Source: an uncultured Pseudomonadota bacterium
GTDB lineage: Bacteria > Pseudomonadota > Alphaproteobacteria > JACZXZ01
DNA: 37,168 nucleotides
Assembly: GCA_963842155.1 (NCBI GenBank)
Contig: CAWJFP010000037.1
Coordinates: 1 to 37,168 of the forward strand
Direction: 5' to 3'
Shown: one piece after another, positions 15,457-35,290 of the stretch
Layout of the letters: the number at the start of each line of letters is the position of its first letter
Numbering within the stretch: the stretch's first letter is position 1
The notes under the pieces: model-generated
What the model was told of the DNA's origin: nothing
Databases searched by the model: none
The model's input: the letters and a program-made list of their open reading frames with translations, nothing else
Position numbers and translations under genes: made by a program

Positions 15457-16235
15457 GCTCGATCGCCGAACGGATGGCTGCGGCCGGCACCGGCAACGCG
15501 ATCGAATTGCGCGGTGTGAGCCGCTTTTTCGGCGCGCTCGCGGCCTTGACCGACATCACGCTCGGCGTGCGACCCGGAGAGCGACGCGCCGTGCTCGGAT
15601 CGAACGGCGCGGGCAAGACGACGCTGCTCAATTGCGTGACCGGCGATTTTCCACCGACGTCGGGAACCGTGCGATTCTTCGGCGAGGACGTCACGACGCT
15701 GCCGCCGCACGAGCGCATTCGCCGCGGGCTCCGTCGCACCTACCAGATTTCGCTGCTGTTCCAGCGCCTCTCGGTGCGCGACAACGTCTATCTCGCCTGC
15801 CGCGGCGTCTCGCGCGGCCGCTTCTCCTTCATCCGCACGCGCGCGAGTGACGCGCTCATGCAGTCGGTCGCGGACCTCATCTCGCTGGTCCATCTCGAAT
15901 CGGTGACCGATCGTCTGGTCGGGGAGCTGGCGCACGGCCAGCAGCGCCAGCTCGAAATCGCGCTGGCGCTTGCCGGCGCGCCGCGCTTCATCCTTTTCGA
16001 CGAGCCGGCGGCGGGCCTTTCGCCAAACGAACGGGCCGATCTGGTCGCGATCCTCACCGCACTTCCCGCCCATATCGGCTACATCATCATCGAGCATGAC
16101 ATGGACGTCGCGCTGCGGGTCGTCGAGAGCGTCACGATGATGCACAACGGACGCATCTTCAAGGAAGGTTCGCCGCGCGAGATCGAGGCGGATCCCGAGG
16201 TGCAGCAATTGTATTTGGGTGGCGGCCATGCCTGA
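15453..16235 (+). CDS. ABC transporter ATP-binding protein (LivG family)
   Basis: Walker [10 protein letters not shown], signature [15 protein letters not shown] and Walker B FILFDEP; ends ...[12 protein letters not shown]. The GTG start overlaps the LivM stop (GTGA) and has a GGGAGGA Shine-Dalgarno. The internal ATG at 15474 is also possible. Confidence 0.8.
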
Positions 16236-18444
16236 GCGTCGTCCCCCCAACCTGTTGGAGATCAATGGGCTCAACGTCTTCTATGGCCGCAGCCACGCAC
16301 TTCAGGGCGTGGATTTAAAGCTCGAGCACGGCGTGCTTTCGCTGGTGGGACGCAACGGGATGGGAAAGACGACGCTGTGCAATGCGATCGTCGGCCTGAT
16401 CCCGGTCGCCAGCGGCTCGATCCGTTTCATGGGAGAGGAGCTCGTCGGCCGCACGCCAGCCGAGATCGCGCGGCTGGGCCTCGGCTACGTGCCGCAGGGC
16501 CGACGGCTGTGGCCTTCGCTCACGGTCGACGAGCATTTGCGGCTCGCCGCCGGCAATGGCCGGTCGCAGTGGACCATCGCACGCATCTACGAAACATTCC
16601 CGCGGCTGGCGGAACGGCGCACCAATCGCGGTAACCAGCTCTCCGGCGGCGAGCAGCAGATGCTCGCCATTTCGCGCGCGCTCCTTCTCAATCCGCGCCT
16701 GCTCATCATGGACGAGCCGACCGAGGGACTTGCTCCGATCATCGTCGAGCAAGTCGAAGAGATCGTGCTCGGCCTCGGCGAGCAGGGCGACATCGGAGTT
16801 GTCGTTGTCGAGCAGAACATCGGGGTCGCAACCGCAATCGCCGAGAAAGTCGCGATCATGATCAACGGACGGATCAACCGGATCATGGAAGCAGCGCGTC
16901 TGGAGGCGGACCGCGAACTGCAACAGAGATTGCTTGGCGTCGGCGAGCAGGGCGAGGCGGAACCGCCCGTAGAGCCTGGCGAGGCGCCGACCGCGGAAGG
17001 CGGGCGCCGACCGGCGAAGGCGCGCGGGCCGGTCCGCGTCTACGTTTCAAACCCGACGATGCCGACGCGCTGGTCACAGCCGGTCCCCGCCACTCAGATT
17101 GAAACCGCAGCACGCACGCATACAGTTGCGCCCGAGCCCGCAACGTCGGGCGCTGCGCCCGCTGTCGAGCTGCGGCCGATCCATCGCGGCGGCGCGGCGC
17201 CGGTGATCGTCGCAGGAACGCTCGACACCAAAGGCGCTGAACTGCGCTTCATTCGCGACCAGATCGCCGCCGCCGGGGTGCGCGTAATTCTGGTCGATCT
17301 TTCCACCTCTGGCGAGCCGTCGCCCGCCGACGTGCCGCCGCACCATGTCGCGACATATTTCCGCGGCGGGCCAAACGCGGTCTTCACCGGCGAGCGGGGC
17401 GCCGCGATCACAGCGATGGCGGAGGCGTTCGAGGCGTGGATCCGGCGGCAGGAACCGGTCGGCGGTCTCATTTCGGCGGGCGGATCAGGCGGTAGTTCGC
17501 TGGTCGCGCCGGCGATGCGGGCGCTGCCGATCGGCGTGCCCAAGGTCCTCATCTCGTCGGTCGCCTCGGGCAATGTCGCGCCTTATGTCGGTCCGTCGGA
17601 TATCATGATGCTCTACTCCGTGACCGACGTCGCCGGCCTCAATTCAGTGACGCGCCAGGTTCTCGGCAACGGGGCCGCGGCTATGGTCGGCATGGTGAAG
17701 GCGCGCGCCGCCAGCGTCGAGCGCGATCGGGTGCCTGCGCGGCGCGGCGGCGGTAAGCCGGCGATCGGCCTCACCATGTTCGGGGTGACGACGCCCTGCG
17801 TCGACGCGGTGGTCGACGCGCTCGAAGAGGACTTCGAGTGTCTCGTTTTCCACGCGACGGGCATCGGCGGGCAATCCATGGAGAAGCTCGTCGATTCCGG
17901 CGTCCTCGCGGGAGTGATCGACATTACAACAACCGAGGTCTGCGATCTTCTGTGCGGCGGGGTGTTTCCGGCCACCGAGGATCGGTTCGGAGCGATCGTG
18001 CGCACCAGAGTCCCTTATGTCGGTTCATGCGGGGCGCTCGACATGGTGAACTTCGGGTCCATGGACAGCGTCCCCGAGCGCTATCGCGGCCGCAACCTCC
18101 ACATCCACAATCCCACCGTGACGCTGATGCGCACGACGCCCGAGGAGAACGTGCGGATCGGACGCTGGATCGGAGAGCGGCTCAACTTGATGGACGGCCC
18201 GGTGCGCTTTTTCCTGCCGGAGGGCGGCGTCTCGGCGCTTGACGCGCCGGGTCGGCCGTTTTCGGATCCGATCGCCGACGAAGAGCTGTTCAGATCGCTC
18301 GAAGCAACCGTTCGACAAACCGCCTCGCGCCGCCTCATCCGGCTGCAGGCGCATATCAACGACCCGCGCTTCTCGGCAGAAATCGTCGCCGAATTTCGTC
18401 GGTTGTTCGGTGGCCGGCTCGCCCGCCGGCGGGCAAAGGGGTAG
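16219..18444 (+). CDS. Continuous 741-aa ORF: LivF-like ABC ATPase (aa 1-240), PAE-rich low-complexity linker (about 90 aa), and UPF0261 / Tm-1-like domain (aa ~320-741)
   Basis: N-terminus: Walker [10 protein letters not shown], signature [15 protein letters not shown], Walker B LLIMDEP; the LivF body ends around ...[10 protein letters not shown]. There is no stop after that point. The ORF continues ...[21 protein letters not shown]...[15 protein letters not shown] and then [35 protein letters not shown]...[32 protein letters not shown]...[11 protein letters not shown]...FHATGIGG, which is typical of the UPF0261 family. The start is GTG 16219 or ATG 16228, overlapping the LivG stop. Confidence 0.6.
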
Positions 18445-18448
18445 CCGC

Positions 18449-19283
18449 ATGCCGCGCATCCCGCGCTCCGACATTCTCGCGCGGCTCCACGCGATGAAAG
18501 CGCGGGGCGAACCGATCATCGGCGCGGGCGCCGGGACGGGCCTCTCGGCGAAGGGCGAGGAGGAGGGCGGCGCCGATCTTATTGTCATCTACAATTCGGG
18601 GCGGTACCGCATGGCCGGCCGGGGGTCGCTCGCCGGCATGATGCCATATGGCGACGCCAACGGCGTCGTGCTCGAAATGGCCCGCGAGGTGCTGCCCGTC
18701 GTCACCCGCACGCCGATCCTCGCCGGGGTGTGCGGCACCGACCCCTTCCGCCAAATGGATCACTTTTTGGATGAAGTCGCACAGCTGGGCTTCAGCGGTG
18801 TGCAGAATTTCCCGACCGTCGGGCTCATCGACGGCCGCTTTCGGGCGGGGCTCGAGGAGACGGGCATGGGCTATGCCCGCGAAGTCGAGATGATCGCCAA
18901 GGCGCGCGCACGCGACCTTCTGACCACGCCCTACGTGTTCGACCCCCCAGAAGCCGCCGCGATGGCGCGCGCGGGCGCCGACGTCCTGGTCTGCCACTTC
19001 GGCCTGACCGTCGGCGGCTCGATCGGGGCCGCGACGTCGACCCGGCTGGAGAATTGTCCGACGTTGACCGACGCGATGGCCGAGGCGGCGCTCGCGGTGA
19101 ACCGCGACGTTTTTATCCTCGTTCACGGCGGGCCGCATCGCCGAGCCGGCCGACGCCGAGTATGTCCTGGCGCGGGCTCGCCACTGCCACGGCTTCTATG
19201 GCGCTTCGTCGATGGAGCGTCTGCCGGTCGAGCGCGCGCTATGTGCCCAGGTTGCAAAATTCAAAGCGATCAAGAAAGCTTAG
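18449..19283 (+). CDS. PEP-hydrolase-like TIM-barrel protein (PF09370-type; canonical partner of UPF0261, fused to it in plant Tm-1), with an apparent +1 frameshift near the C-terminus
   Basis: [85 protein letters not shown]... matches the family. After ...FILVHGGP the conserved tail [48 protein letters not shown] (stop 19281-19283) lies in the +1 frame. An extra C at about 19136 (ccgCatc) explains the shift. Confidence 0.7.
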
Positions 19284-19339: not shown

Positions 19340-22300
19340 ATGTCCGTCGCCATTCTCGGTAGCCTGATCATCTGGCTGATCGTCGCGGTCATCGTCATCG
19401 CGATCGTCGTCTATTTCGTCAACTGGCTCTACCACCGTTCCTCGAAGGAAGTCTCCTTCGTGCGCACCGGCCTGTTCGGCGAAAAGGTGGTGATCAACAG
19501 CGGGGCCTTCGTTCTGCCGTTCATTCACGAGGTCACCCCGGTCAACATGAACGTCCTGCGCATGCAGGTCGTCCGCAACCGCGATGACGCGCTCATCACC
19601 AAGGACCGGATGCGCGTCGACATCGAGTCGGAGTTTTACGTCCGGGTGCCGCCGACGCGGGAGGCGGTGACGATCGCCGCCGCAACGCTCGGCCGGCGCA
19701 CGACCAACGTCGCCGAGCTCGACACGCTGTTATCCGGCAAGTTCATCTCCGCCCTGCGCTCGGTCGCCTCCGAGATGACGATGGTGGAGATGCACGAGCG
19801 GCGCGGCGAATACGTCGCCCGGGTCAAGGAATCGGCGCTGGAAAGCCTCAAGCAGAACGGCCTCGAACTCGAATCGGTGGCGATCACTGATCTCGACCAG
19901 ACCGACCTTGAATTTTTCAATCCGTCGAACCGCTTCGACGCCGAAGGTCTGACCAAGCTGATCGAGGACATCGAAGCGCGGCGCAAGCTGCGCAACGACA
20001 TCGAACAGGAATCGATGATCCTCATTCGCAGCCGCAATCTCGAAGCCGAGAAACAGGCGCTGGACATTGATCGCGAAAGCGAGACCGCACGCCTCAATCA
20101 GGAACGTGACATCGAGGTGAGACGCGCGGTTCAGCGCGCCGAACTCGCCCGCGAGCGCTCCTTGCGCGACACCGAGGCGGAGCAGGCCCAAATCTCCGGC
20201 CGCGAGGAGGTCGAGAAGACACGCATCGCCCATGAGCGCACCCTCGCCGAGGCGCGCATCACTTCCGAGCGCGAAATTCGCGAGCGCGAGATCGAGCGTG
20301 GTCGCCAGATCGACGAGGCGGAGATCGCTGCGCGCGAACGCGTCGAGCGCGCGCGCATCGCCCAGGAACGGGTCGTCACCGAGGCGCGGATCGCCCGCGA
20401 GGAAGACGACCAGCGACGTGAAATCGAACGCACGCGCAACGTCGAGCAGGCCGAAATTGTCGCGCGCGAGGAGACCGAGAAAGCGCGCATCGCGCAGGAG
20501 GTCGCAGTGACCGCGGCGCGCATCGCCCAGGAGCGAGGAGAATAGGCGCCTCGAGATCGAGCGCGCGCGCAACTTGGAGCAGGCCGAGATCGCGGCTCGC
20601 GAGACCACCGAGCGCGCGCGTATCGCGCAGGAGCGCGTGGTCACTGACGAACGCATCGCGCTCGAAGAAGAAATCCGGCGCCGCGAGATCTCGCGCAACC
20701 GCGCGATCGACGAGGAAGAGATCGCCGCTGCGAAGGCCACAGAAGCCGCCCGCATCGCTCGCGAAAAGGCGCTCGCCGCCGAGCGCATCGCCTCCGAGCT
20801 CGCCACCCGGACGCTCGAAATCGAGCGGACGCGGTCGCTGGAGGAAACCGATATCGCGGCGCGAGAAGTCACGGCCGCGGCGCGCATCCAGCAGGAGGAG
20901 CGCATCCGAGCGCTCGACATCGCCCGCAACCGCTCGATCGAGGAGGCCGAGATCGCGGCGCGCGAGGCGGTCGAGGCGTCGCGTATCGCCCAGGAGAAGA
21001 AGATCGCCGTCGAGCGGATCGCCGCCGAGGAGCTGACGAGGAGCCGCGAGATCGGGCGAATCAAGACCATCGAGGCCGCCGAAATCGCCGCCCGCGAGTC
21101 GACCGAGACCGCGCGCATCGCCCTCGACAAGAAGATCGCCGCGGACCGTATCGGCGCCGACCAGGAGACCCGCGGGCTGGAGATCGCCCGCAACGAAGCG
21201 ATCGAGTCCGCCGAGATCGCCTCGCGCCAGGTCGTCGAATCGGTCCGCATTCTGGAGGACCGCAAGATCGCCGCGGAGAAAATATCGCGCGATGAAGAGG
21301 TGCGCTCGCTGGAGATTGCCCGCAATCGCGCGGTCGATACGGCCGAGATCGCGGCGCGCGAGGCGGTCGAGGCGACGCGTATCGCCCAGGAGAAGAGGAT
21401 CGCCGCGGAGCGCATCGCGGCCGAACAGGAGACCAAATCGCGCGACATTGCGCGCGAGCAGGCGATCGAAGACGCCGAGATCAGGCGGCGCGAGGCCGTC
21501 GAGGCCGCGCGCATCGCGGTCGAACTTGCGCTGGAGCAGGAGAGGATCGAGTCGTCGAAGACGCGCGATGTACTCGACGTCGAGCGCCGGAAAGTCTTGG
21601 AGATCGCCGAGCAGGATCGCTCGATCGAAGTCGCAGCCAAGCTTGCCGAGCGTGCTGACGCCGATCGTCGGGTGAAGGAAGCCGATATCGTCGCGGCGCA
21701 GCACGTGGGGCGCACAGACGTTGTGCGCGAGCAGACCCTCGATCTGGCCCGGCTCGAACGCCGAAGGGCGGTGGAGCAATTCGAGGTCGCCCGCTCACAG
21801 TCACTGCAGGAAGCCGAGATCGCGGCCCGCGAGGAGGTCGAGCGTGCGCGCATCGCCTCGGAACGTGGCATCGACGAGGCGCGCATCCTGCGCGACCGGG
21901 AACTGCGTCAGCTCGAAATCGGCCGCGAAACGGCGGTCGAGACCGCCCGCATGGAGAGCACCATCGAAATCCACCGCAAGTCGCGCGAACAGTCGGCGGC
22001 ACAGGCCGACGCCGAGACGGCCCGCGCCCAAGCGGTCGAGGCCGAGGAGCGGGTCAAGACGGTACGCGAGAGCGAGGCGGCGCGCCGCCGGCGCGCGGTC
22101 GAAGTGCTCATCGCCGAGAAGGAGGCCGACGAAGTGCGGATCGCGGCGGCTGCCGAACAGGTGCGCTCCGCGGTCGAGGCCGACGCGCAGCGGCTCCTCA
22201 ACGAAGCCGAGAACGTTCTCACCGACGCGGCCCGCGCGTCGCTGTTCCGCCGCAGGCTGCTCGAGCGTATCGAAGGCATCGTCCGCGAGAGCGTCAAGCC

Positions 22301-22595
22301 GATGGAGAAGATCGAGGGCATCCGCATCCTGCAGGTCGACGGCCTCAACGGCGGGCGCGGCGGCTCGGGTGGGCGCAGCGCCACCGATGAGGTCATCGAT
22401 TCGGCGCTGCGTTACCGCGTGCAGGCGCCGATGATCGACCAGATCCTCGCCGAGATCGGCATCGAGGGCGGCAGCCTCTCGCGAATGCCGGGCCTCATTC
22501 GCGAGGCGCGCGATATGCAGGGCATCCGCAAGGAGGCGGCGCCGAAGAAGCCGCCCGAAGAGGGCGGAGGCGGATCATCGTCGGGGCAGACCTGA
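19340..22595 (+). CDS. Giant flotillin / SPFH (band-7) family protein (~1085 aa) with an expanded coiled-coil repeat region; one apparent +1 frameshift at about 20535-20545
   Basis: N-terminal TM helix (ILGSLIIWLIVAVIVIAIVVYFV), then an SPFH domain (EVSFVRTGLFGEKVVINSGAFVLPFIHEVTPVNMNVLRMQVV...). A long E/A/R/I-rich repeat region follows, then a flotillin-type C-terminus (...IRILQVDGLNGGRGGSGG...). ORFs 19340..20545 and 20574..22595 join if one G is removed from cgagGag: ...ARIAQER(E)ENRRLEIERARNLEQAEIAARE... continues the repeat pattern without a break. Confidence 0.7.
20040..21650. repeat. About twelve tandem 132-bp (44-codon) coding repeats inside the flotillin-like gene
   Basis: Example: gccgagatcgcggcgcgcgaggcggtcgaggcg(t/a)cgcgtatcgcccaggagaag(a/g)a(g)gatcgccg appears at about 20948 and again at about 21345 (3 x 132 bp) with 2-3 mismatches. 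The protein-level unit is RxLEIxRxRxxExAEIAAREAVEAxRIAQEKxIAAERIAAEQET. Confidence 0.8.
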
Positions 22596-22625: not shown

Positions 22626-23063
22626 ATGCCCCGCGTCTATGTCTCGAGCGTCATCAACGGTCGCTCCGACCGCGTCTGGGCGCGGGTGCGCGATTTCAAT
22701 GGCTTGCCCTCCTGGCATCCGGGGATCGCGGAGAGTCGGATCGAGAACGGCGAACCGGCGGACAAGGTCGGCTGCGTGCGCGACTTCCGCCTGCGCAACG
22801 GCGACCGAATCCGGGAAAAGCTTCTCGGTCTGTCGGACTTCGATCTGTTCTGCACCTATTCGATCCTCGAATCCCCCATGGGCGTCGAGAATTACGTGGC
22901 GACGCTCCGTCTCACCCCGATCACCGACGGAGAGCGGACCTTCGTCGAGTGGACGGCGGAATTCGACTGCCCGCCGGAGCGCGAGGCCGAGCTCGTCTCG
23001 ACGATCGGAGGCGGCGTTTTCCAGGGCGGTTTCGACGCCCTGAAACGCCAGTTCGCAGGATGA
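22626..23063 (+). CDS. SRPBCC-superfamily protein (polyketide cyclase / START / CoxG-like fold)
   Basis: 145 aa; begins MPRVYVSSVINGRSDRVWARVRDFNGLPSWHPGIAES... with the typical SRPBCC opening (x-I-x-A-P-x-D-x-VW); a GGAGCG Shine-Dalgarno precedes the ATG. Confidence 0.6.
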   Translation: MPRVYVSSVINGRSDRVWARVRDFNGLPSWHPGIAESRIENGEPADKVGCVRDFRLRNGDRIREKLLGLSDFDLFCTYSILESPMGVENYVATLRLTPITDGERTFVEWTAEFDCPPEREAELVSTIGGGVFQGGFDALKRQFAG

Positions 23064-23084
23064 GCCCATGACTAGGATGAGGTC

Positions 23085-23546
23085 ATGATCCGGATTGTCC
23101 GCTCGACGATCATCGACGCGCCGACTGACCGCGTCTGGGCGTTCCTGCGCGATTTCAACGGGCACGAACGCTGGCATCCGGCCGTCGCCAAGAGCGCGAT
23201 CGAGCGCGGCCAGAGCGCCGACAAACTGGGTTGTGTGCGGCGCTTCTTCCTGCGCGACGGCTCGGAGCTCCGCGAGCGTCTGCTGACACTCTCCGACCTC
23301 GAGCAGAGCTTTACCTATTGCCTGCTCGAGACGCCGATTCCGCTATTCAATTATACTGCCCATGTCCGCCTCGCGCCGGTCACCGATGGCGACCGGACGT
23401 TCTGGGAGTGGCGGTGTTCGTTCTCGACGAGGAAAGGCGAGGAGGCTGAAATGACGCGCCTCGTCGGCGAGGACATCTATGACGCGGGATTCGCCGCCGT
23501 TCGTGCTCATCTCGCCGCATCCTCGGGATTGGAGGGCCGCGCGTGA
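23085..23546 (+). CDS. SRPBCC-superfamily protein, tandem paralog of the preceding gene
   Basis: MIRIVRSTIIDAPTDRVWAFLRDFNGHERWHPAVAKSAIE... is about 45% identical to the upstream paralog. Its stop overlaps the GTG start of the FAD subunit (GTGA). Confidence 0.6.
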   Translation: MIRIVRSTIIDAPTDRVWAFLRDFNGHERWHPAVAKSAIERGQSADKLGCVRRFFLRDGSELRERLLTLSDLEQSFTYCLLETPIPLFNYTAHVRLAPVTDGDRTFWEWRCSFSTRKGEEAEMTRLVGEDIYDAGFAAVRAHLAASSGLEGRA

Positions 23547-24355
23547 GCATCACGGTAAAGACCTTCGCCCGATTAGCCGACGCGGCCGCGGCGCTCGCGA
23601 GCGAACGCGGGGCGCGCTTTCTCGGCGGCGGAACGCTGCTCATGCGCGCGGTCAATGAGGCCGACCCGGCGATCGAGACGATCGTGCGCTCGAGCGATCC
23701 CACCCTCCTCAACATCGCAGTCTCGTCGGGCCGCGTGGAGCTCGGCGGCGGCGCGACCATGGCCGCGATCCTCGCCGAGCGCGAACTCGCGTTTCTGCAT
23801 CCGGTGGCGCGCGTGGTCGGCAGCCCGGCGGTGCGCGAGGCGGCGACCGTCGGCGGCAATCTGTTTGCGACAAAAGGCGACTTCGCGACGGCGCTGCTCG
23901 CGCTCGACGCGACCGTGATGCTCGCTGGCGGCGTCGGTCAACGCGAGCTGCCGCTCGAAGAGTTTCTCGGTCGTCGCGAGCGGGGGGCCGCGCTCGTATC
24001 GAGCGTCGCGTTCAAGCGGCCGGCGGCCGACGCGTTCCGGTTTGCCAAGGTCACCCGCGTCCACCCCAAAGGCATGTCGGTCCTCTCGATCGCTGCCCAA
24101 TTGCCCCTTGTCAGCGGCCGGATAACCGGCGCGAGGATTGCCTATGGCGGGATGGATCGTACGCCAGTGAGGGCCAAGGCGGCTGAACGGGCACTCGAGA
24201 GCCGCGGGCTCGACGCGGCCGGCATCGCTCCGGCTCTCGCCGTAGCCGCCGACGGCACCTCACCCGCCGACGACGCGATCGCCAGCGCCTGGTGGCGGCG
24301 GGAAATCCTCCTTGTCCATCTGCGCCGGCTGCTGCTCGGCGTCGGCCAAGCGTGA
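23543..24355 (+). CDS. Molybdopterin-dehydrogenase FAD-binding (medium) subunit, CoxM/XdhB-like
   Basis: RFLGGGTLLM and ...REAATVGGNLF... FAD-binding motifs; 270 aa; GTG start coupled to the preceding gene. Confidence 0.75.
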   Translation: MSITVKTFARLADAAAALASERGARFLGGGTLLMRAVNEADPAIETIVRSSDPTLLNIAVSSGRVELGGGATMAAILAERELAFLHPVARVVGSPAVREAATVGGNLFATKGDFATALLALDATVMLAGGVGQRELPLEEFLGRRERGAALVSSVAFKRPAADAFRFAKVTRVHPKGMSVLSIAAQLPLVSGRITGARIAYGGMDRTPVRAKAAERALESRGLDAAGIAPALAVAADGTSPADDAIASAWWRREILLVHLRRLLLGVGQA

Positions 24356-24362
24356 GGCGCCG

Positions 24363-24842
24363 ATGAAGACGCCGATTCAATTTCGTCTCAATGATGAGGA
24401 TGTCGCCGCCTTCGCCGAGAGCGGCGCCAACCTGCTCGACGTGCTGCGCGAATCGGTCGGCGACCTGTCGGTGAAGGGCGGCTGCTGGCAGGGCACCTGC
24501 GGCGCGTGCACGGTGCTTGTCGACGGCGCGCCGCGCCTTGCCTGCGTAACACTGGCGGAAAGCTGCGCCGAGCGGTCGGTCGAGACCGTCGCGGGGCTGC
24601 GGCGCGGCCCCGACCTCCACCCCCTGCAAAGTGCCTTCATGGAGCGCTTCGCGGCCCAGTGCGGCTATTGCACGCCGGGCATGCTGATGGCAGCCAAGGC
24701 GCTCCTCGACCGCAATCCCAATCCCTCCCGGGAGGATGTCGTCGACGCCATTTCCGGCAATATCTGCCGCTGTACTGGCTATGAACCCATCATCCAGGCG
24801 GTCCTCGAAGCCGCCCGCGGCGACAGCCGTCGCCGCGCCTGA
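24363..24842 (+). CDS. (2Fe-2S)-binding small subunit, CoxS/XdhC-like
   Basis: MKTPIQFRLNDEDV... with plant-type ferredoxin cysteines CWQGTCGACTV and a second cluster motif QCGYCTPGMLM...GNICRCTGYEPI. GAGG Shine-Dalgarno 7 nt upstream. Confidence 0.85.
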   Translation: MKTPIQFRLNDEDVAAFAESGANLLDVLRESVGDLSVKGGCWQGTCGACTVLVDGAPRLACVTLAESCAERSVETVAGLRRGPDLHPLQSAFMERFAAQCGYCTPGMLMAAKALLDRNPNPSREDVVDAISGNICRCTGYEPIIQAVLEAARGDSRRRA

Positions 24843-24853
24843 AGGACACCGCC

Positions 24854-26475
24854 ATGCTCGAATTCCGCAAGGACATTTTCGCCGACGAACGCGACGACAA
24901 CCTGAAGGAGGTCGGCCACCCGACGCAGCGTCAGGACATGCTCGGGCACGTCACCGGGACCTCGGCCTATTACGATGATCACCGCTTCGCCAACCTGCTC
25001 CATCTGAAGGTTCTGCGCAGTCCGCATGCCCATGCGCGTATTCGCTCGATCGACGACTCGGTCGCGGCGCGCGCGCCGGGCGTCAAGCGGATCATTCGGG
25101 CGGCCGACGTTCCGGTCAATCTCAATACGCTCTTGAGCCTCATCCAATTCGGCAAGGACGACGAGCCTTCGCTCGCGACCGACGTCGTGCGCTACAAGGG
25201 CGAGCCGATCATCGGAGTAGTCGCGACCAGCGAGCGCGCGGCGCTTCAGGCCCTCGCCATGGTGCGCGTCTCCTACGATCCGCTGCCGGCAGTCTTCGAT
25301 GTAGAGGAGGCGCTGAAGCCGGGAGCCCCGTCGGTCAACGCAACCTATCCGAAGAACACGTTCGAATATTACGGCAAATACGACCACCAGAAGCTTCGTT
25401 TCGGCGACGCCGATACGGCCTTCGCGCAGGCCGACGTCGTGCTCGAAGAGCGCTATCAGATGTCGCCGATCGAGCATGCCCCGATCGAGACCAACGGCTC
25501 AATCGCCGTGCCGGACACGAACGGCCGATTTGTCGTTTACACCTCGACCCAGGCGCTCTTCTTCTCTTTGGACACCGCCGCCAAGATCAATGCGATGCCC
25601 TCGAACCAGTTGCATTTCATCGGCGGCACTGTCGGCGGCGGCTTTGGCGGCAAGGTCGACACCCTCACCGAGCCCCTCGTCATCCTCGCGGCGCGCCTGA
25701 CGGGCGCACCCGTGCGCTACCGGCTGAGCCGGCACGAGGAAATGCAGTTCGGCTCGCCCCGCGGCGCTGAGCGAATCTATGTCAAAGACGGCGTCATGCG
25801 GGATGGGCGGATCATCGCCCGCAAGGTGAGAGCTTATTTCGACAGCGGGGCCTACACGCGGCTTTCGAGCTACGCGGCAGTCAAATGCGCGGCCCATATT
25901 CCCGGACCCTATACGATCCCCAACGTCCACGCGGACATCTTCTGCGTTTTCACCAACCGAACACCGGCGACCGCAATGCGCGGGTTCGGCGTCACGGCGC
26001 TCGACTTCGCGCTTGAATGCCAAATGGACAAGCTCGCCGTTGCGGTCGAGATGGACCCTCTCGAGTTCCGCATTCTCAATGCTTACCGCGACGGCGACAT
26101 GAAAGCGCACCGGCGCGAGGCCAAGAACTGCGCGCTCATCGAATGCGCGCAGGTCGCCGCTGAAAAAGCCAACTGGCCGATCCGCGAGGAATTCCGCAGG
26201 ATGTCGTCGCGGGTCGGCGGGGGGCAGCGCGGACCGGCGGCGGCGCGACCCGGACCGGCGCACAGGCTCCTGTCGCCGCCCCCGCGCCCGCACAAACCGG
26301 GGCAGGCTCGCCCCAGCGTGTCCCGTACGATCGCGCCGCTGCGGCCGCGCCGGCACATAACGTGCCACCGCCGACGCCCGCGCGAAGCGCACCGCCACCC
26401 CCTGCCGCGCCGCCTGCCGGATCGACGCATGGGGCGCCGCGCTTTTCCTCAGTTTTTGGAACACGGAGGCGCTGA
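24854..26475 (+). CDS. Molybdopterin-binding subunit, N-terminal half (xanthine dehydrogenase / aldehyde oxidase family), with a probable Pro/Ala-rich C-terminal tail reached through a -1 shift in a G6 homopolymer
   Basis: Conserved to about aa 450 (...HFIGGTVGGGFGGKVDT..., ...TPATAMRGFGVTALDFALECQMDKLA...). After the G-run at 26219-26224 the annotated frame becomes Arg-rich nonsense and overruns the next start. The -1 frame instead gives AQAPVAAPAPAQTGAGSPQRVPYDRAAAAAPAHNVPPPTPARSAPPPPAAPPAGS... and stops at TGA 26473-26475, 3 nt before the next ATG, which has a GGAGG Shine-Dalgarno. Confidence 0.65.
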
Positions 26476-26478
26476 TCA

Positions 26479-27501
26479 ATGGCCAAGCATCGCGGACGCG
26501 GGGTGGCGACCATCAATTATCCGATCGGCATGAATCTCGGCGGCGATCCGAGCCAAGCGCTGGTTCATTCCAATCCGAGCGGAAAATTCACCGTCGCTCT
26601 TTCCTCGATCGACCTCGGACAGGGAATGAAATCGGTGACGCGGCAGATCTGCGCGGAGACGCTAGGCGTGCCGGTCGAGGACGTCTATGTCGACACCGCC
26701 GATTCGGACACCGGCCCGCATTGCATGGGCTCGTTCGCCTCGCGCGGAACGCACCGCGTCGGCAACGCGGTGATGGTAGCGGCGCGCGAGGCGCGCGCGG
26801 TCATGATGGAGGCGGCGGCGGAGGAGCTTGAAGTCGACCCAGGCGACCTCGAGACCGACGGGCGCGGCTCCATCCGGGTGAAGGGCGCGCCCCACCGGTC
26901 GATCTCCGTGCGCGACGTCGCTATCGCGGCCCAGTTCCGTCAGGGACGTACGATCTCCGGGCGCGGCATTTTCCTGGTGCCGTTGTCGGACGTCGATCCG
27001 GAAACCGGCGAGATGTCGCCGGCAACCTGCTACGCCCACGCCTGTCTCATTGTCGAAGTCGAGGTCGATGACGAGACCGGCGACGTCACCGTGCTGAAGA
27101 TGACAAGCGCCTACGAGGTTGGGCGCGCGATCAACCCCAAGCTCGTCGAACAGCAACTCGTCGGCGGCTCATGGATGGGCATGAGTCACGCGCTCTATGA
27201 GACTACGGAACCGTATTACCCGGATACCCGTGAGGGACCGCGGGACTTCAACGAATACCTGATGCCCGGCCCCGGCGACATCTGTCCGCACGACATTGTG
27301 GTGCTCGAACGGCCCGCCCCTGACGGCCCCTTCGGCGCGAAGGGCCTGGGCGAGATGTGCGCCAATCCCGTCCTGCCGGCGGTCGCCAACGCGATTTTCG
27401 CGGCGGTTGGTGTGCGTATCAACGAACTGCCAATCACGCCGGAGAAAGTTCTCAGGGCGCTGAAAGCGCGGGGCGGCGCGGCCCCGGCGCGCGCGCGGTG
27501 A
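26479..27501 (+). CDS. Molybdopterin-binding subunit, C-terminal half (separate ORF; split large subunit)
   Basis: MAKHRGRGVATINYPIGMNLGGDP... corresponds to the start of the C-terminal Mo-cofactor domain of single-chain XDH-family large subunits. It has its own GGAGG Shine-Dalgarno and ATG, and a conserved ...GPFGAKGLGEMCANPVLPAVANAI... tail. Confidence 0.75.
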   Translation: MAKHRGRGVATINYPIGMNLGGDPSQALVHSNPSGKFTVALSSIDLGQGMKSVTRQICAETLGVPVEDVYVDTADSDTGPHCMGSFASRGTHRVGNAVMVAAREARAVMMEAAAEELEVDPGDLETDGRGSIRVKGAPHRSISVRDVAIAAQFRQGRTISGRGIFLVPLSDVDPETGEMSPATCYAHACLIVEVEVDDETGDVTVLKMTSAYEVGRAINPKLVEQQLVGGSWMGMSHALYETTEPYYPDTREGPRDFNEYLMPGPGDICPHDIVVLERPAPDGPFGAKGLGEMCANPVLPAVANAIFAAVGVRINELPITPEKVLRALKARGGAAPARAR

Positions 27502-27507
27502 TCTGTC

Positions 27508-28389
27508 ATGGCGGTGCGCCGTACCATCGTCGGCATCGGCAGCCCGCGGGAGCTCGAGGAGGCGCTTCGCGCCGCCTACTACCTGGCCGACGAGGAGCTT
27601 TCGACCGCCGCCTATCTCGCGCTCGCCCTCGGCAAGCCGCTCTTGCTCGAAGGCGCGCCGGGCGTGGGCAAGACCGAAGCCGCCAAGGCGATTGCCGGCG
27701 TGCTCGGCCGCATCCTCCTCCGCCTGCAATGCTACGAGGGCATCGACGCGGCGGCGGCGCTCTACGAATGGAATTTTCCGCGCCAGATGCTCGCGCTGCG
27801 CCGGGAGGGCGCCGGCGAGGTCGACATCTATCGCGACGAGTTCCTTATCGAGCGGCCGATGCTCGCCTGCCTGCGGCGTCCCGAAGAAACAGTGCTGCTC
27901 ATCGACGAGATCGACCGCTCCGACCACGAGTTCGAGGCCTTCCTCCTCGAGTTTCTTTCCGACTTTCAGATTTCGATTCCCGAGCGAGGCACCATTCGCG
28001 CTTACGAGCGGCCGGTCGTGATCCTCACCTCCAATCGGACACGCGAATTGCATGAAGCATTGCGTCGCCGCTGCGTCTATCACTGGATCGATTATCCCGC
28101 GCCCGAGCGCGAAATGCGGATCATCATGATGCGCGCATCGGGTGTTGGCGAGCGGGCGGCGCGGGCCGTCGTCGCCGCAGTGGGACGATTGCGCCGCGAG
28201 CCGCTCGCCAAGCTCCCCGGGATCGCGGAGGCGGTCGAATGGGCGGAGGCCGCAACGCTCCTCAACGAACAGGGAACGCGGTGGCCGGAAGCCTTCCGGC
28301 GCTCGCTCGGCGTCGTCCTCAAGGACGAGGACGACTTCGTTCATGTCGCGCCGAAGATCGACGCCATTCTCGCGGAGGCGCAGGCATGA
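27508..28389 (+). CDS. MoxR-type AAA+ ATPase, CoxD-like maturation factor
   Basis: Walker A LLEGAPGVGKT, Walker B VLLIDEIDR, sensor ...ILTSNRTRELHEALRRRC...; it sits in the canonical position after the Mo subunit. Confidence 0.85.
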   Translation: MAVRRTIVGIGSPRELEEALRAAYYLADEELSTAAYLALALGKPLLLEGAPGVGKTEAAKAIAGVLGRILLRLQCYEGIDAAAALYEWNFPRQMLALRREGAGEVDIYRDEFLIERPMLACLRRPEETVLLIDEIDRSDHEFEAFLLEFLSDFQISIPERGTIRAYERPVVILTSNRTRELHEALRRRCVYHWIDYPAPEREMRIIMMRASGVGERAARAVVAAVGRLRREPLAKLPGIAEAVEWAEAATLLNEQGTRWPEAFRRSLGVVLKDEDDFVHVAPKIDAILAEAQA

Positions 28390-29498
28390 TCGACACGGCG
28401 CGTCCCATTGCCCACTTCCTCGGCTTCACCGCGCTGCTGCGGCGCGCGGGCTTCGCCGTCGCGCCCGAGCAGACGATGGCTTGGCTCGCCGCGATCGATC
28501 TTCTCGGACCCGAAGAGATCGGCGACGTCCGTCGCGCCGCCCGCGCCACGCTGGCGCCGCCGCCGGAGCGCTTCGCCGAATTCGACGCGCTGTTCGATGC
28601 GCATTTTCTCGGCGCGCTAGGCTCGCAACTGGAATCAGAGCCGAGCGACGAGGCGCCGCTGCGGGCTGCCGACGATTCGTCGGTTGGGCCCGAGCCGATT
28701 TTCGGCGAGGAGACGCGTGAATCGGGCGCCAAGGCGACTGGCGCCGAGAGACTCTCGGCGCGGCGCTTCGGACCCGGGGACCAGAACGAAACGCTGCGTC
28801 GCTTCGCCCGCGCTTTGCCGGCCCGCGTGCCGCGGCGACGCGGTTATCGCTGGCGGGCGGCGCGCGGCGGGCCCGGCACCGATGCGCGGCGCATGTTTCG
28901 CGACGCCATGCGCCACGCCGGCGAGTTCATCCGGCTGCGCCGCCGCAGGCGCCGTCTGCGGCAGCGCCGCATCGTCGTCCTTATCGATGTCTCCGGCTCG
29001 ATGAAGGAGCGCACGCAAGCCCATCTTGCCTTCGCCCATGCCCTGGCGCGCGCCGCCGAGACTGCCGAGGTGTTCACGATCGGGACGAGGCTCACACGCA
29101 TTACCCGGGCGTTGCGGCTGCGCAACCGCGAACGGGCGCTCGCCGCCGCGTCTTTGCTCGTTGCCGACTGGGACGGCGGCACCCGCATTGGTGAGGCGCT
29201 CGGGGCCTTTCTCGCCATTCCGCGCTTCGCCGCGCTGGCGCGCGGGGCGGCGCTCGTCGTCCTTTCGGACGGGCTCGAGCGCGGCGATCCGAGCGCGATG
29301 CGCGACGCGGTCGAGCGCTTCTCTCGGATCGCGTGGCGGACCGTGTGGCTGACGCCGCTCGCCGCCGATCCGGCCTTCGAGCCTCGCACCGCCGGCCTGA
29401 GCGCGGCGCGGCCCTTCCTCGACGAACTCGGCGACGGCGGCTCGATCGACAGCATCTGCGCCCATGTTCTCGATTTGGCGAACGCGAGGGCGGCATGA
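28386..29498 (+). CDS. VWA-domain protein, CoxE-like
   Basis: ATG overlaps the coxD-like stop (ATGA). VWA MIDAS motif ...RIVVLIDVSGSM... in the C-terminal half; N-terminal region typical of CoxE. Confidence 0.75.
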   Translation: MIDTARPIAHFLGFTALLRRAGFAVAPEQTMAWLAAIDLLGPEEIGDVRRAARATLAPPPERFAEFDALFDAHFLGALGSQLESEPSDEAPLRAADDSSVGPEPIFGEETRESGAKATGAERLSARRFGPGDQNETLRRFARALPARVPRRRGYRWRAARGGPGTDARRMFRDAMRHAGEFIRLRRRRRRLRQRRIVVLIDVSGSMKERTQAHLAFAHALARAAETAEVFTIGTRLTRITRALRLRNRERALAAASLLVADWDGGTRIGEALGAFLAIPRFAALARGAALVVLSDGLERGDPSAMRDAVERFSRIAWRTVWLTPLAADPAFEPRTAGLSAARPFLDELGDGGSIDSICAHVLDLANARAA

Positions 29499-32905: not shown

Positions 32906-33102
32906 GATATCTATACCGGTAGCGCAAGCCCTTCGCTGGCGAAGGCCCTTTGCACCGCGGGACGGGCGGCTCAGGCGCCGCTTGACCAAGATATCAAGCG
33001 GACGAAGCTGGCTAACGCCTCGATATCGTCCTGCGAGCGGACGTCGAGCTTGCGCAGCTTGGCGCGCAATCCCTGCAGTTTGTTCGGGTCCAGATCGGTC
33101 GC

Positions 33103-34376
33103 AATCACTTTAGGGCACCTCGAAAAATAGCCGCCTTAGCCAGTTTGTGCGAGTTCTAACTGATGAGGACAAGATTCGCAGAGGTGGGGCGATGGGACAA
33201 CTCGGATTTTTCGATGCGGACAAGCGGCTTGCGGCGATTTCTGCGAAGGGCGATCCGCTGGAGATGATCGATCGGGTGGTGCCGTTCGAGCGCTTCCGTG
33301 CCGAGATTGAGGCGGTAGTGTTGACGCCGGCGGAGGACAAGAAGAGCAGCGCTGGCCGCAAGCCGATCGATGTCATCGTGATGTTTCGGATGCTGGTGCT
33401 GCAATCGCTCTACAATCTTTCCGACGAGCAGGTCGAGTATCAAGTGAGCGACCGCATGTCGTTTACGCGGTTTCTGCGGCTTGGCATTGAGGATCGCGTA
33501 CCCGACGGCACGACGCTGTGGCTGTTCCGTGAGACGTTGGGGAAGGCCGGGCTGATCGAGAGGCTGTTCAAGCGCTTTAGCCGGCATTTGGAGGCGAAGG
33601 GCTACATTGCACGTGGCGGCCAGATGGTAGATGCCACGATCGTGCCGGTTCCCAAGCAACGTAATAGCCGCGAAGAGAATGAGGCCGTGAAGGCCGGCAA
33701 GACACCACAGGAATGGCAGAAGAACCCCGCGAAAAACCGGCAGAAAGACAAGGATGCGCGCTGGACCAAGAAGCACGGTAAGAGTTTCTACGGCTACAAG
33801 AACCACGTGAATGCGGATGCCAAGCACAAGCTGATCCGTCACTACGAGGTGACCGACGCGAGCGTGCATGACAGCCGGAAGTTCTATGGGCTTCTGAACA
33901 AGGCCAACACGTCTGCGAACGTATACGCGGACAGCGCGTATCGCTCGGCCGCGACCGAGGCGAAGCTCAAGGTGCGCGGCTTGCACAGTCACATTCATCA
34001 GCGTGCGAGCCGCAATCATACGCTATCGAAAGCACAGGAGAACGCCAACCACCAGAAGAGCAAGGTTCGGGCTCGCGTCGAGCACGTGTTCGGTGCTCAG
34101 CAAACATCGCCGGGTGGTCGGATTGTACGGACGATCGGTATCGTGCGGGCGAAAGCCAAGATCGGCCTGCAGAACCTCGCCTACAACATCCGCCGGCTTG
34201 TGACGCTGGAGCGGATGGTGGCCGCGGCATAACGGAGAAGTCCGACTGAAGGGCCCTGAACAGGGCACCTGCCGCAAAAAGCGGAGACGCATCCGCGCCA
34301 AATCAACAGTGGAAATGATCGTCGCGCCGCAGGGGTGGCCGAGCCAACGACAAAATCATCATTGTTCGAGGTTCCC
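33103..34376 (+). mobile_element. IS5-family insertion sequence (1274 bp) with imperfect 16-18 bp terminal inverted repeats and 4-bp TTTA target-site duplication
   Basis: Left end GGGCACCTCGAAAAATAG (33103-); right end reverse-complement GGGAACCTCGAACAATGA (-34376). TTTA lies immediately outside both ends (33099-33102 and 34377-34380). Removing the element restores the SDR reading frame. Confidence 0.75.
33192..34232 (+). CDS. IS5-family DDE transposase
   Basis: MGQLGFFDADKRLAAISAKGDPLEMIDRVVPFERFRAEIE... parallels IS5 Ins5 (MSHQLTFADSEF...EQILPWQ). DDE_Tnp_1 core ...GQMVDATIVPVP...YGYKNHVNADAKHKLIRHYEVTDASVHDS...ADSAYRS...; 346 aa; GAGGTGG Shine-Dalgarno. Confidence 0.85.
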   Translation: MGQLGFFDADKRLAAISAKGDPLEMIDRVVPFERFRAEIEAVVLTPAEDKKSSAGRKPIDVIVMFRMLVLQSLYNLSDEQVEYQVSDRMSFTRFLRLGIEDRVPDGTTLWLFRETLGKAGLIERLFKRFSRHLEAKGYIARGGQMVDATIVPVPKQRNSREENEAVKAGKTPQEWQKNPAKNRQKDKDARWTKKHGKSFYGYKNHVNADAKHKLIRHYEVTDASVHDSRKFYGLLNKANTSANVYADSAYRSAATEAKLKVRGLHSHIHQRASRNHTLSKAQENANHQKSKVRARVEHVFGAQQTSPGGRIVRTIGIVRAKAKIGLQNLAYNIRRLVTLERMVAAA

Positions 34377-35290
34377 TTTAGCGCCCTCGCCGGCGAATTT
34401 TTCTGCAATCGCCCGGCCGATGCCCTGGCCCGCGGCGGTCACCAGCGCGACCTTCCCTTCCAGTCTGCTGCTCATGCTCGCCTCAATACGAGCCAAAAAG
34501 GCATATTGCGATCTTCGAGGGCAGCGCTTAGTGCGCTGGTTGAATGGCCAACGCAGCTTTTACACCCATTCATGATTGGGCTGGACAACATACACACGGA
34601 ATGTCCTGTCGGGTCTTTCGACCACCCAGTTTAGATAATTCCCCAAAAATCTTGGAGGCTTATTGAAAGCTGTCACGCGATTTACCTTAGTTCGGCATTA
34701 TGCGGTCTGGCCCTGAATCCGATTTGGTCGATGGCATCCTAAGCTAATTTCATCTACTTTTCGAATTCCAAGGCCTCATATCAGATATCCGATGTTCGAG
34801 CGCCCGCATTTCGGGTTGCTGAACCGTTTGGTGCACTCGAACACGGCCGTCGTCTCGCATCGCCAAGCGAGAAATGACCGGTTCGCTGCCGCGCATCCAA
34901 GCGGCACATAACCCGGAATTATTATCGGACGGATCGCGCGTGCCGATGTTCGGACTGGCGCAAAAACCTAATCTGCAGTTATGGTTCCAGGCACTTGGCC
35001 AGGATTTGCTTGGCGACCAGAGCCGAGCTGGCAATGCCTAAACTGCACGCATTGTTTTCCTCCCAATTCTCTAACAGGCTCGCCTGAGACTTGCACAACC
35101 TTTGGTCAAGCGGAATTGATGTTGGCCGCACCGATCAGGAAGCTTAGCATTGGTAAGGAAGTGATACCCGGGGTCGCTTGCCCACTCGAATCATCATAGG
35201 TCGTAGGCTCAGCGGGGCCACATGCCTCATATCGTGCAAAGTTCGCTTCCGAACTAAAATGGCCCGAATTAACATTGGCGAGGATAAAAC

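Follow-up and report, generated by a model that had tools for sequence, protein, structure and literature searches.

A conserved C-terminal tail behind an apparent frameshift in a split molybdenum hydroxylase subunit

The window analysed here is a 37,168-nucleotide (nt) stretch of DNA from an uncultured alphaproteobacterium (GenBank assembly GCA_963842155.1, contig CAWJFP010000037.1, positions 1 to 37,168). It encodes a molybdenum hydroxylase whose large, molybdenum-binding (Mo) subunit is divided between two genes, called here the N-half and the C-half gene. As written, the N-half gene leaves its conserved frame at a run of six G (G6). We conclude that this is very probably a true run of seven (GGC GGG GGG GCA; G7) that has come out one G short, most likely through a sequencing or assembly error. 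The locus would then hold two coupled genes of a split Mo subunit, the first of which ends in a conserved tail rich in proline and alanine.

Reading frames at the site and in its relatives

As written, the first open reading frame (ORF1) encodes 559 amino acids. Past the G6 run, its frame continues for 102 arginine-rich codons (21% Arg) and overlaps the second frame (ORF2) by 55 nt. An earlier note, made from the sequence alone, had described this Arg-rich run-on; the overlap with the downstream start stands, while the length it gave, ~110 codons, is too high. Insertion of one G, which equals a shift to the -1 frame, yields a protein of 540 amino acids with a tail of 87 residues (25% Ala, 20% Pro, 14% Gly) that ends in ...STHGAPRFSSVFGTRRR. 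The corrected N-half gene stops with TGA at 26473-26475, followed by TCA and then by the ATG of the C-half gene, 9 nt downstream of a GGAGG Shine-Dalgarno sequence (Table 1). The corrected translation thus confirms the Ala/Pro-rich tail that the earlier note had expected to end 3 nt before this ATG, and the start codon with its own GGAGG is present as it had been described. The GC content at third codon positions, taken by frame over 26225-26478, does not discriminate between the frames because low-complexity Pro/Ala codons distort it.

Relatives show that the frame of the tail is the real one. A protein search with the corrected sequence as query found more than 100 orthologs, mostly of 511-570 amino acids and at 71-89% identity, that cover 100% of the corrected N-half, tail included, and whose tails all end in ...HGAxRFSSVFGTRRR. 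Scanning species-representative genomes yielded 80 loci, which come from Xanthobacteraceae metagenome-assembled genomes (MAGs), Pseudolabrys, Roseiarcus, Chelatococcus and many cultured Bradyrhizobium, complete genomes included. In nearly all of them a single segment matches residues 1-540; only L035, which is cut off by a contig end, and the frame-broken L084 depart from this. The tail and its terminal motif are in frame at 83 distinct loci, complete Bradyrhizobium genomes among them. Every intact locus has an N-half of 521-561 amino acids followed by a separate C-half gene of 338-352 amino acids, and 79 such pairs were extracted. The Pro/Ala-rich tail is conserved in frame in all intact orthologs, and the Arg-rich frame is kept in no relative. 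Orthologs with one uninterrupted large subunit, which the earlier note had considered as a pointer to a pseudogene, were found only as frame-broken 'fused' records.

The site is also covered by two conspecific contigs. L089/L095 (JGI 3300079084, Ga0665309_00014528; 98.8-99.1% nt identity to the window) and L090 (NCBI GCA_052916045.1, JBLFKX010163559.1; 98.1%) read GGCGGGGGGGC (G7; GGC GGG GGG GC) where the window reads GGCGGGGGGC (G6). This means that, measured against its own species, the window lacks one base. In line with this, the gene calls of L089 and L090 give an N-half of 539/540 amino acids and a C-half of 340 amino acids, with the same TGA-TCA-ATG spacer as in the window. Nor is the deletion, which is one relative to conspecifics and orthologs alike, shared by L009, L017 or L021. 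The G tract itself is absent from other species, in which the Gly-Gly-Gly is encoded by GGC GGC GGC or similar; G runs reach no more than 2-3 nt in 77 of the 85 sequences. The 2Fe-2S and CoxD proteins of the window occur identically on both conspecific contigs, which are independent of each other. The exact ORF2 protein has no database record.

The correct annotation is a pair of 540 and 340 amino acids; the 559-residue ORF and the 'fused' entries of 855-881 residues are artefacts. The latter (P0033, P0038, P0040 and P0057, and loci L031 and L084) had come up as candidate fused large subunits and were rejected, as they read the tail out of frame into the C-half. N-terminally extended 'C-half' proteins (P0275, P0281, P0287) were likewise dismissed as gene-calling artefacts in the open third frame. 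Artefactual public models of the gene pair further include P0048, P0053, P0289 and P0295 and locus L007. Two kinds of artefact recur in these records, namely frameshift 'fusions' within the tail and C-halves with a false N-terminal extension of ~100-120 amino acids drawn from the GC-rich tail region.

Sequencing error or real deletion

That the one-base deletion is an artefact is an interpretation of the sequence comparisons, and one that we consider highly likely. Window-private indels that are not multiples of three, including the one at 26222, break five conserved genes in an 18-kb syntenic block (Table 1). Between 22626 and 28838, in contrast, the window has no private codon substitution against the two conspecifics, but one private frameshift. 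A private spectrum that consists of indels only points to consensus error rather than mutation, and private indels without private substitutions point to an indel-prone assembly. In one alignment, 13 and 8 private indels were found in two Nanopore-derived MFD loci and 3 in L009, a locus of a SPRUCE MAG outside MFD; the window's count resembles that of the Nanopore-derived MFD loci rather than that of L009. MFD MAGs were assembled from Nanopore data (PMC12313526); a known weakness of such assemblies is the homopolymer indel (PMC9262707).

The deletion looks like the single-base undercall of a G7 run that long-read homopolymer errors produce. Sister records from Nanopore MAGs (L007, L031, L084, P0033, P0038, P0040, P0057) show like frame breaks in the N-half gene. 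The earlier note had offered a homopolymer sequencing error, with a natural Pro/Ala-rich tail on the true product, as one of two explanations; the G7 of the conspecific contigs and the in-frame tail of all intact orthologs support it. At least five homopolymer or other small indels in the window illustrate how long-read metagenome assemblies can give rise to false frameshifts, fusions and pseudogenes. Homopolymers in the whole 37-kb window reach 6 nt at most, with twelve of exactly that length, a ceiling that may reflect homopolymer compression.

Three points weigh against an artefact. Three other coding frameshifts of the window arise from single inserted bases that do not lie in long homopolymers, unlike the typical homopolymer error. 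The call was made from assembled sequences and leaves some room for a genuine, strain-specific 1-nt deletion. Finally, the window may or may not come from a long-read platform.

If the deletion were real, the N-half would lose its tail and gain an Arg-rich end, and translation would terminate 55 nt inside the C-half gene. The enzyme would then be crippled, either as a young pseudogene or in an 'off' state set by a slippage-prone G tract. G7 tracts can slip in replication, and the tract does differ in length between the conspecific contigs (G7) and the window (G6). In addition, several neighbouring genes are also broken, as in a decaying cluster, and a transposase of the insertion sequence (IS) type lies just beyond the end of the syntenic block. 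However, the absence of private codon substitutions over ~6 kb of the cluster, despite the private frameshifts, speaks against a real deletion, as does the concentration of five broken genes in 18 kb that are otherwise 81-95% identical in amino-acid sequence to their orthologs. The private indel count, moreover, resembles that of known Nanopore MAG loci. A G tract that is not conserved among orthologs makes an evolved, phase-variable switch less likely. Overall, we regard a real deletion as improbable.

The tail and the start of the C-half gene

The 76 distinct tails of the close clade are 68-108 amino acids long (median 77) and contain 23% Pro, 18% Ala and 13% Arg. They carry two conserved islands. 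The mid-tail island reads PQRV(A/T)YER or QQRT(T/S)YDR in orthologs, with R484, Y487 and R489 nearly invariant in the alignment. The terminal island, H-G-A-x-R-F-S-S-V-F-G-T-R-R-R, is near-invariant at the very C-terminus in the 83 distinct loci. Within it, the residues H-G-A-x-R-F-S-S-V-F-G are constant and the third codon positions are free; the Phe, Val and His codons vary too, and the Ser at -9 is encoded by TCT in 32, TCC in 25, TCA in 13 and TCG in 11 of the loci. Residues that are fixed while synonymous sites vary indicate selection on the terminal motif at the protein level.

The two penultimate Arg codons behave differently: one is AGG in 77 of the 83 loci and the other is AGG in 70 and AGA in 13, which spells AGGAGG. 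The last Arg codons of the N-half gene double as the Shine-Dalgarno sequence of the C-half gene. One might argue that the tail end is kept only for such RNA-level reasons. In that case it would matter as the region where translation of the C-half gene starts, and not as a peptide. The near-constant AGG AGG would fit this view, as would the FSSVF codons, which are unusually T-rich for a genome with 64% GC. In contrast, the invariance of H-G-A-x-R-F-S-S-V-F-G with freely varying third positions is that of a constrained peptide, and P0121, a relative with 64% identity, has a far longer tail that still finishes with ...SRFLSGSRRR. We therefore judge a role at the RNA level alone to be unlikely.

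For the structure of the tail, AlphaFold2 was run on the N-half of the ortholog P0001 alone, with an alignment of 101 sequences and a moderate mean predicted local distance difference test score (pLDDT) of 62.7. Residues 454-535, which form the tail, reached a pLDDT of 24-40 and showed no secondary structure. The tail is thus predicted to be disordered in isolation. No relevant description of a tail on split Mo subunits turned up in literature searches.

The N-half and C-half genes are translationally coupled cistrons rather than a broken gene, because the distance from stop to ATG is short and variable, and no promoter or terminator was found between them. Across loci the spacing ranges from a 1-nt overlap (TGATG) to 3 nt. 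The spacer of the window at 26476-26478 (TGA TCA ATG) is shared with L021, L089 and L090, and its extra A is natural variation, not an error.

The other explanation offered by the earlier note, an authentic frameshift, does not hold up. Programmed -1 ribosomal frameshifting on the G run could yield the tailed protein from the sequence as written, and a -1 shift on GGG GGG does lead exactly back into the conserved frame. Conspecifics and all orthologs, however, have the tail in the zero frame, and the zero-frame product as written is conserved in no relative. A conserved slippery heptamer was not found among the 85 ortholog sequences, in which the site is mostly GGC GGC GGC. Nor was a stimulatory RNA structure found 3' of the G run (minimum free energy -40.7 kcal/mol; mean of the shuffled controls -42.6; z = +0.57). 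We consider programmed frameshifting hardly credible. The same goes for a single gene that is read through, or decoded with selenocysteine, at TGA-TCA to give a fused subunit of 880 amino acids: the 3-nt spacer of the window, L089, L090 and L021 does put the frame of the tail and ORF2 in register, but spacers of 2, 1 or 0 nt or overlapping codons place the genes out of frame in most orthologs, 10 of 83 loci have TAA or TAG instead of TGA, the Shine-Dalgarno sequence and ATG are conserved, and the only 'fused' records are frameshift artefacts.

The split hydroxylase and its gene neighbourhood

The assignment to the xanthine dehydrogenase family follows from domains and motifs. ORF1 matches PF01315 (7.6e-25) and PF02738 (1.9e-69) and ORF2 matches PF20256 (6.5e-62), which gives the family's domain order of Ald_Xan_dh_C (a/b hammerhead), MoCoBD_1 and MoCoBD_2. 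The gene for the flavin adenine dinucleotide (FAD) subunit carries the Pfam domains FAD_binding_5 and CO_deh_flav_C and is CoxM-like. The ORF at 24312-24842, which contains the 2Fe-2S gene of Table 1, carries Fer2 and Fer2_2 and is a CoxS-like 2x[2Fe-2S] subunit. The N-half has GGGFGGK at 261 and MRGFG at 375, and the C-half has GLGE at 289; we take GGGFGGK, xRGFG and the catalytic Glu in G-x-G-E to be cofactor and catalytic motifs of the family. Judged by its sequence, the locus is a xanthine-dehydrogenase-family hydroxylase of the four-subunit type (FAD, 2x[2Fe-2S], Mo-N and Mo-C).

The split itself is a known architecture. The best solved match of both halves is NdhL/NdhM of the Eubacterium barkeri nicotinate dehydrogenase (3HRD; E = 8.9e-62 and 5.2e-51), which is split at the equal position: NdhL 8-415 corresponds to N-half 20-439 and NdhM 2-328 to C-half 3-331. 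The earlier note's view that the Mo subunit is divided at an interdomain boundary is borne out by Pfam (MoCoBD_1 / MoCoBD_2) and by this alignment, and its comparison with NdhL/NdhM was apt. The matches to solved structures make the fold of the subunit clear. As in the window, the FAD and 2Fe-2S subunits have genes of their own next to the split pair, and the four E. barkeri genes have been described as transcriptionally coupled (PMC10331938). In contrast to the window's N-half, NdhL has 425 amino acids and no tail; here, ~87-90 extra residues follow the equivalent end. The neighbours also differ from those of the E. barkeri cluster and comprise a flotillin, two SRPBCC proteins, CoxD/CoxE-like proteins, an amidohydrolase, a metallo-beta-lactamase-fold protein and an SGL-isochorismatase protein. 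No NCBIfam equivalog for the subunits reaches its cut-off. The likeness to nicotinate dehydrogenase holds at the family level only, and we do not file the enzyme as one by function.

Fused large subunits of the family (4-hydroxybenzoyl-CoA reductase alpha, 1RM6; CoxL; xanthine dehydrogenase; quinoline oxidoreductase) have the three Pfam domains in the same order and the same motifs, but are single chains. In 1RM6 the split point is bridged by ~8 residues (425 corresponds to N-half 442 and 433 to C-half 3). An aerobic CO dehydrogenase was considered and ruled out, since the active-site loops AYRCSFR (form I VAYRCSFR) and AYRGAGR (form II) are absent from the subunit; CoxD/CoxE/CoxG-like neighbours are not defining.

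These comparisons bear on the origin of the tail. The split metagenome relatives P0124, P0128, P0134 and P0137 (41-52% identity) are divided at the same point, with the C-half gene abutting or overlapping the N-half stop and with FAD and FeS genes upstream. Their N-halves (436-463 amino acids) lack both the Pro/Ala-rich extension and the RFSSVFGTRRR motif, and they stop only a few residues away from the MSS(K/R) at which the tail begins in the window; P0137, for example, ends in ...KMSSKSGREG*. P0121, which has the same gene cluster, carries a tail of ~160 amino acids ending in ...SRFLSGSRRR. The data indicate that the tail is a clade-specific C-terminal extension acquired after the split, in which the length of the spacer varies and the terminal peptide is fixed. 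The earlier note had suggested a vestige of the former interdomain linker, which is not what the relatives show: since fused relatives bridge the split point with ~8 residues and the nearest split relatives end where the tail begins, an extension is the better description.

The tail is apparently an undescribed variant on the known split architecture and, as such, mildly interesting. It may be a flexible tether that holds out a short C-terminal peptide for a partner to bind. Apart from the C-half and the other subunits, candidate partners would be three kinds of co-encoded protein, namely the AAA+/VWA pair, the flotillin and the SRPBCC proteins. The docking segment that the earlier note had suggested is a candidate reading of the tail. 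We tentatively propose that a disordered, Pro/Ala-rich tether was added after the split and that HGAxRFSSVFGTRRR recruits or docks a partner from the cluster (the C-half, the giant flotillin/SRPBCC proteins, or MoxR and VWA as a maturation pair), which would make it an undescribed functional module. If so, the tail would control assembly, cofactor maturation or membrane-microdomain localisation of the molybdenum hydroxylase. In a rough weighing of the possible roles, docking within the complex comes first, though well short of even chances; a handle for the CoxD/CoxE-like AAA+/VWA proteins and no peptide function at all follow on a par, and a flotillin/SRPBCC membrane scaffold is the least favoured.

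Two considerations count against the tether. The tail is predicted to be disordered in isolation, and the tail-less locus L100 also has a downstream MoxR/CbbQ-type AAA+ gene, which means that co-occurrence does not single out a partner. On account of this gene, the idea that the downstream AAA+/VWA pair is specific to the tailed clade was rejected. The extension is widely conserved in Xanthobacteraceae, including many cultured Bradyrhizobium such as B. oligotrophicum S58 and B. betae, and both the motif and the overlap of coding sequence and ribosome-binding site are testable in culturable strains.

Table 1. Features at the split-subunit locus, neighbouring genes, and genes broken by window-private indels (window coordinates).
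Feature	Position	Strand	Remarks
ORF1 as written	24854-26533	+	559 amino acids; hammerhead (Ald_Xan_dh_C) + MoCoBD_1 by Pfam
N-half gene, corrected by one G	24854..26475	+	540 amino acids, hammerhead + MoCoBD_1 + tail; corrected translation
G6 run, apparent frameshift site	26219..26224	+	codons 456-457; one G below conspecific G7
Tail coding sequence, Pro/Ala-rich	26225..26472	+	one base out of register with upstream part as written
Mid-tail island PQRVPYDR	26311..26334	+	ortholog comparison
C-terminal motif HGAPRFSSVFGTRRR, near-invariant	26428..26472	+	codon comparison, 83 distinct loci
Shine-Dalgarno GGAGG of C-half gene	26465..26469	+	inside last Arg codons of N-half gene
C-half gene, MoCoBD_2	26479..27501	+	340 amino acids; Pfam, 3HRD NdhM alignment
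Two SRPBCC/CoxG-like proteins	22626-23063, 23085-23546	+	Pfam
FAD subunit	23543-24355	+	Pfam
2Fe-2S subunit	24363-24842	+	Pfam
MoxR-type AAA+ (CoxD-like)	27508-28389	+	Pfam; tblastn against L001 orthologs
VWA (CoxE-like)	28386-29498	+	Pfam; tblastn against L001 orthologs
LivM-like permease, broken in window	14909 (+2), 14994 (+1)		ortholog comparison
PEP-hydrolase-like gene, broken in window	19136 (+1)		ortholog comparison
Giant flotillin gene, broken in window	20535 (+1, extra G)		ortholog comparison
Amidohydrolase (Amidohydro_2), broken in window	29739 (+1)		ortholog comparison

The hydroxylase genes are part of a conserved cluster that contains UPF0261/PEP-hydrolase-like genes, a flotillin of 1,100-1,200 amino acids, two SRPBCC genes, the four subunits, the MoxR AAA+ and VWA genes and an Amidohydro_2 gene, together with a metallo-beta-lactamase-fold protein and an SGL-isochorismatase fusion. 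The operon partners upstream of the N-half gene (22626..24842) occur in the same order in L001-L008, L089, L090 and L098. The flotillin-type protein (19340-22595, ~1,100-1,200 amino acids) has an N-terminal Band_7/SPFH and a C-terminal Flot domain and is split in the window at 20535. Its long, repetitive middle matches itself at 63-73% nt identity, and in every related locus its gene immediately precedes the two SRPBCC genes and those of the hydroxylase. Intergenic private indels were found at 19281 and 19326, the latter being a deletion in a GGGCGGGG run shortly before the start of the flotillin gene. At the junction between the end of the first SRPBCC gene and the following intergenic region, the window has a 17-nt insertion (23056-23072) relative to L009, L017 and L021; it is species-specific and not an error, because there is no indel at this point against the conspecific L089 and L090.

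Further upstream, an ORF of 741 amino acids (16219-18444) fuses an ABC-transporter ATPase domain to the N- and C-terminal domains of UPF0261 (Tm-1-like), and the PEP-hydrolase-like gene comes next. A frameshift artefact was considered for this ABC_tran-UPF0261 ORF and rejected, as it is intact at the same length in L009, which makes it a natural fusion. At the other end, a DDE transposase (DDE_Tnp_1 + DUF772; 33147-34232) lies just beyond the point where synteny ends (32853). Short matches to an ORF of L009 (~32992-33117 and 34377-34481) flank the transposase, which suggests an IS insertion.

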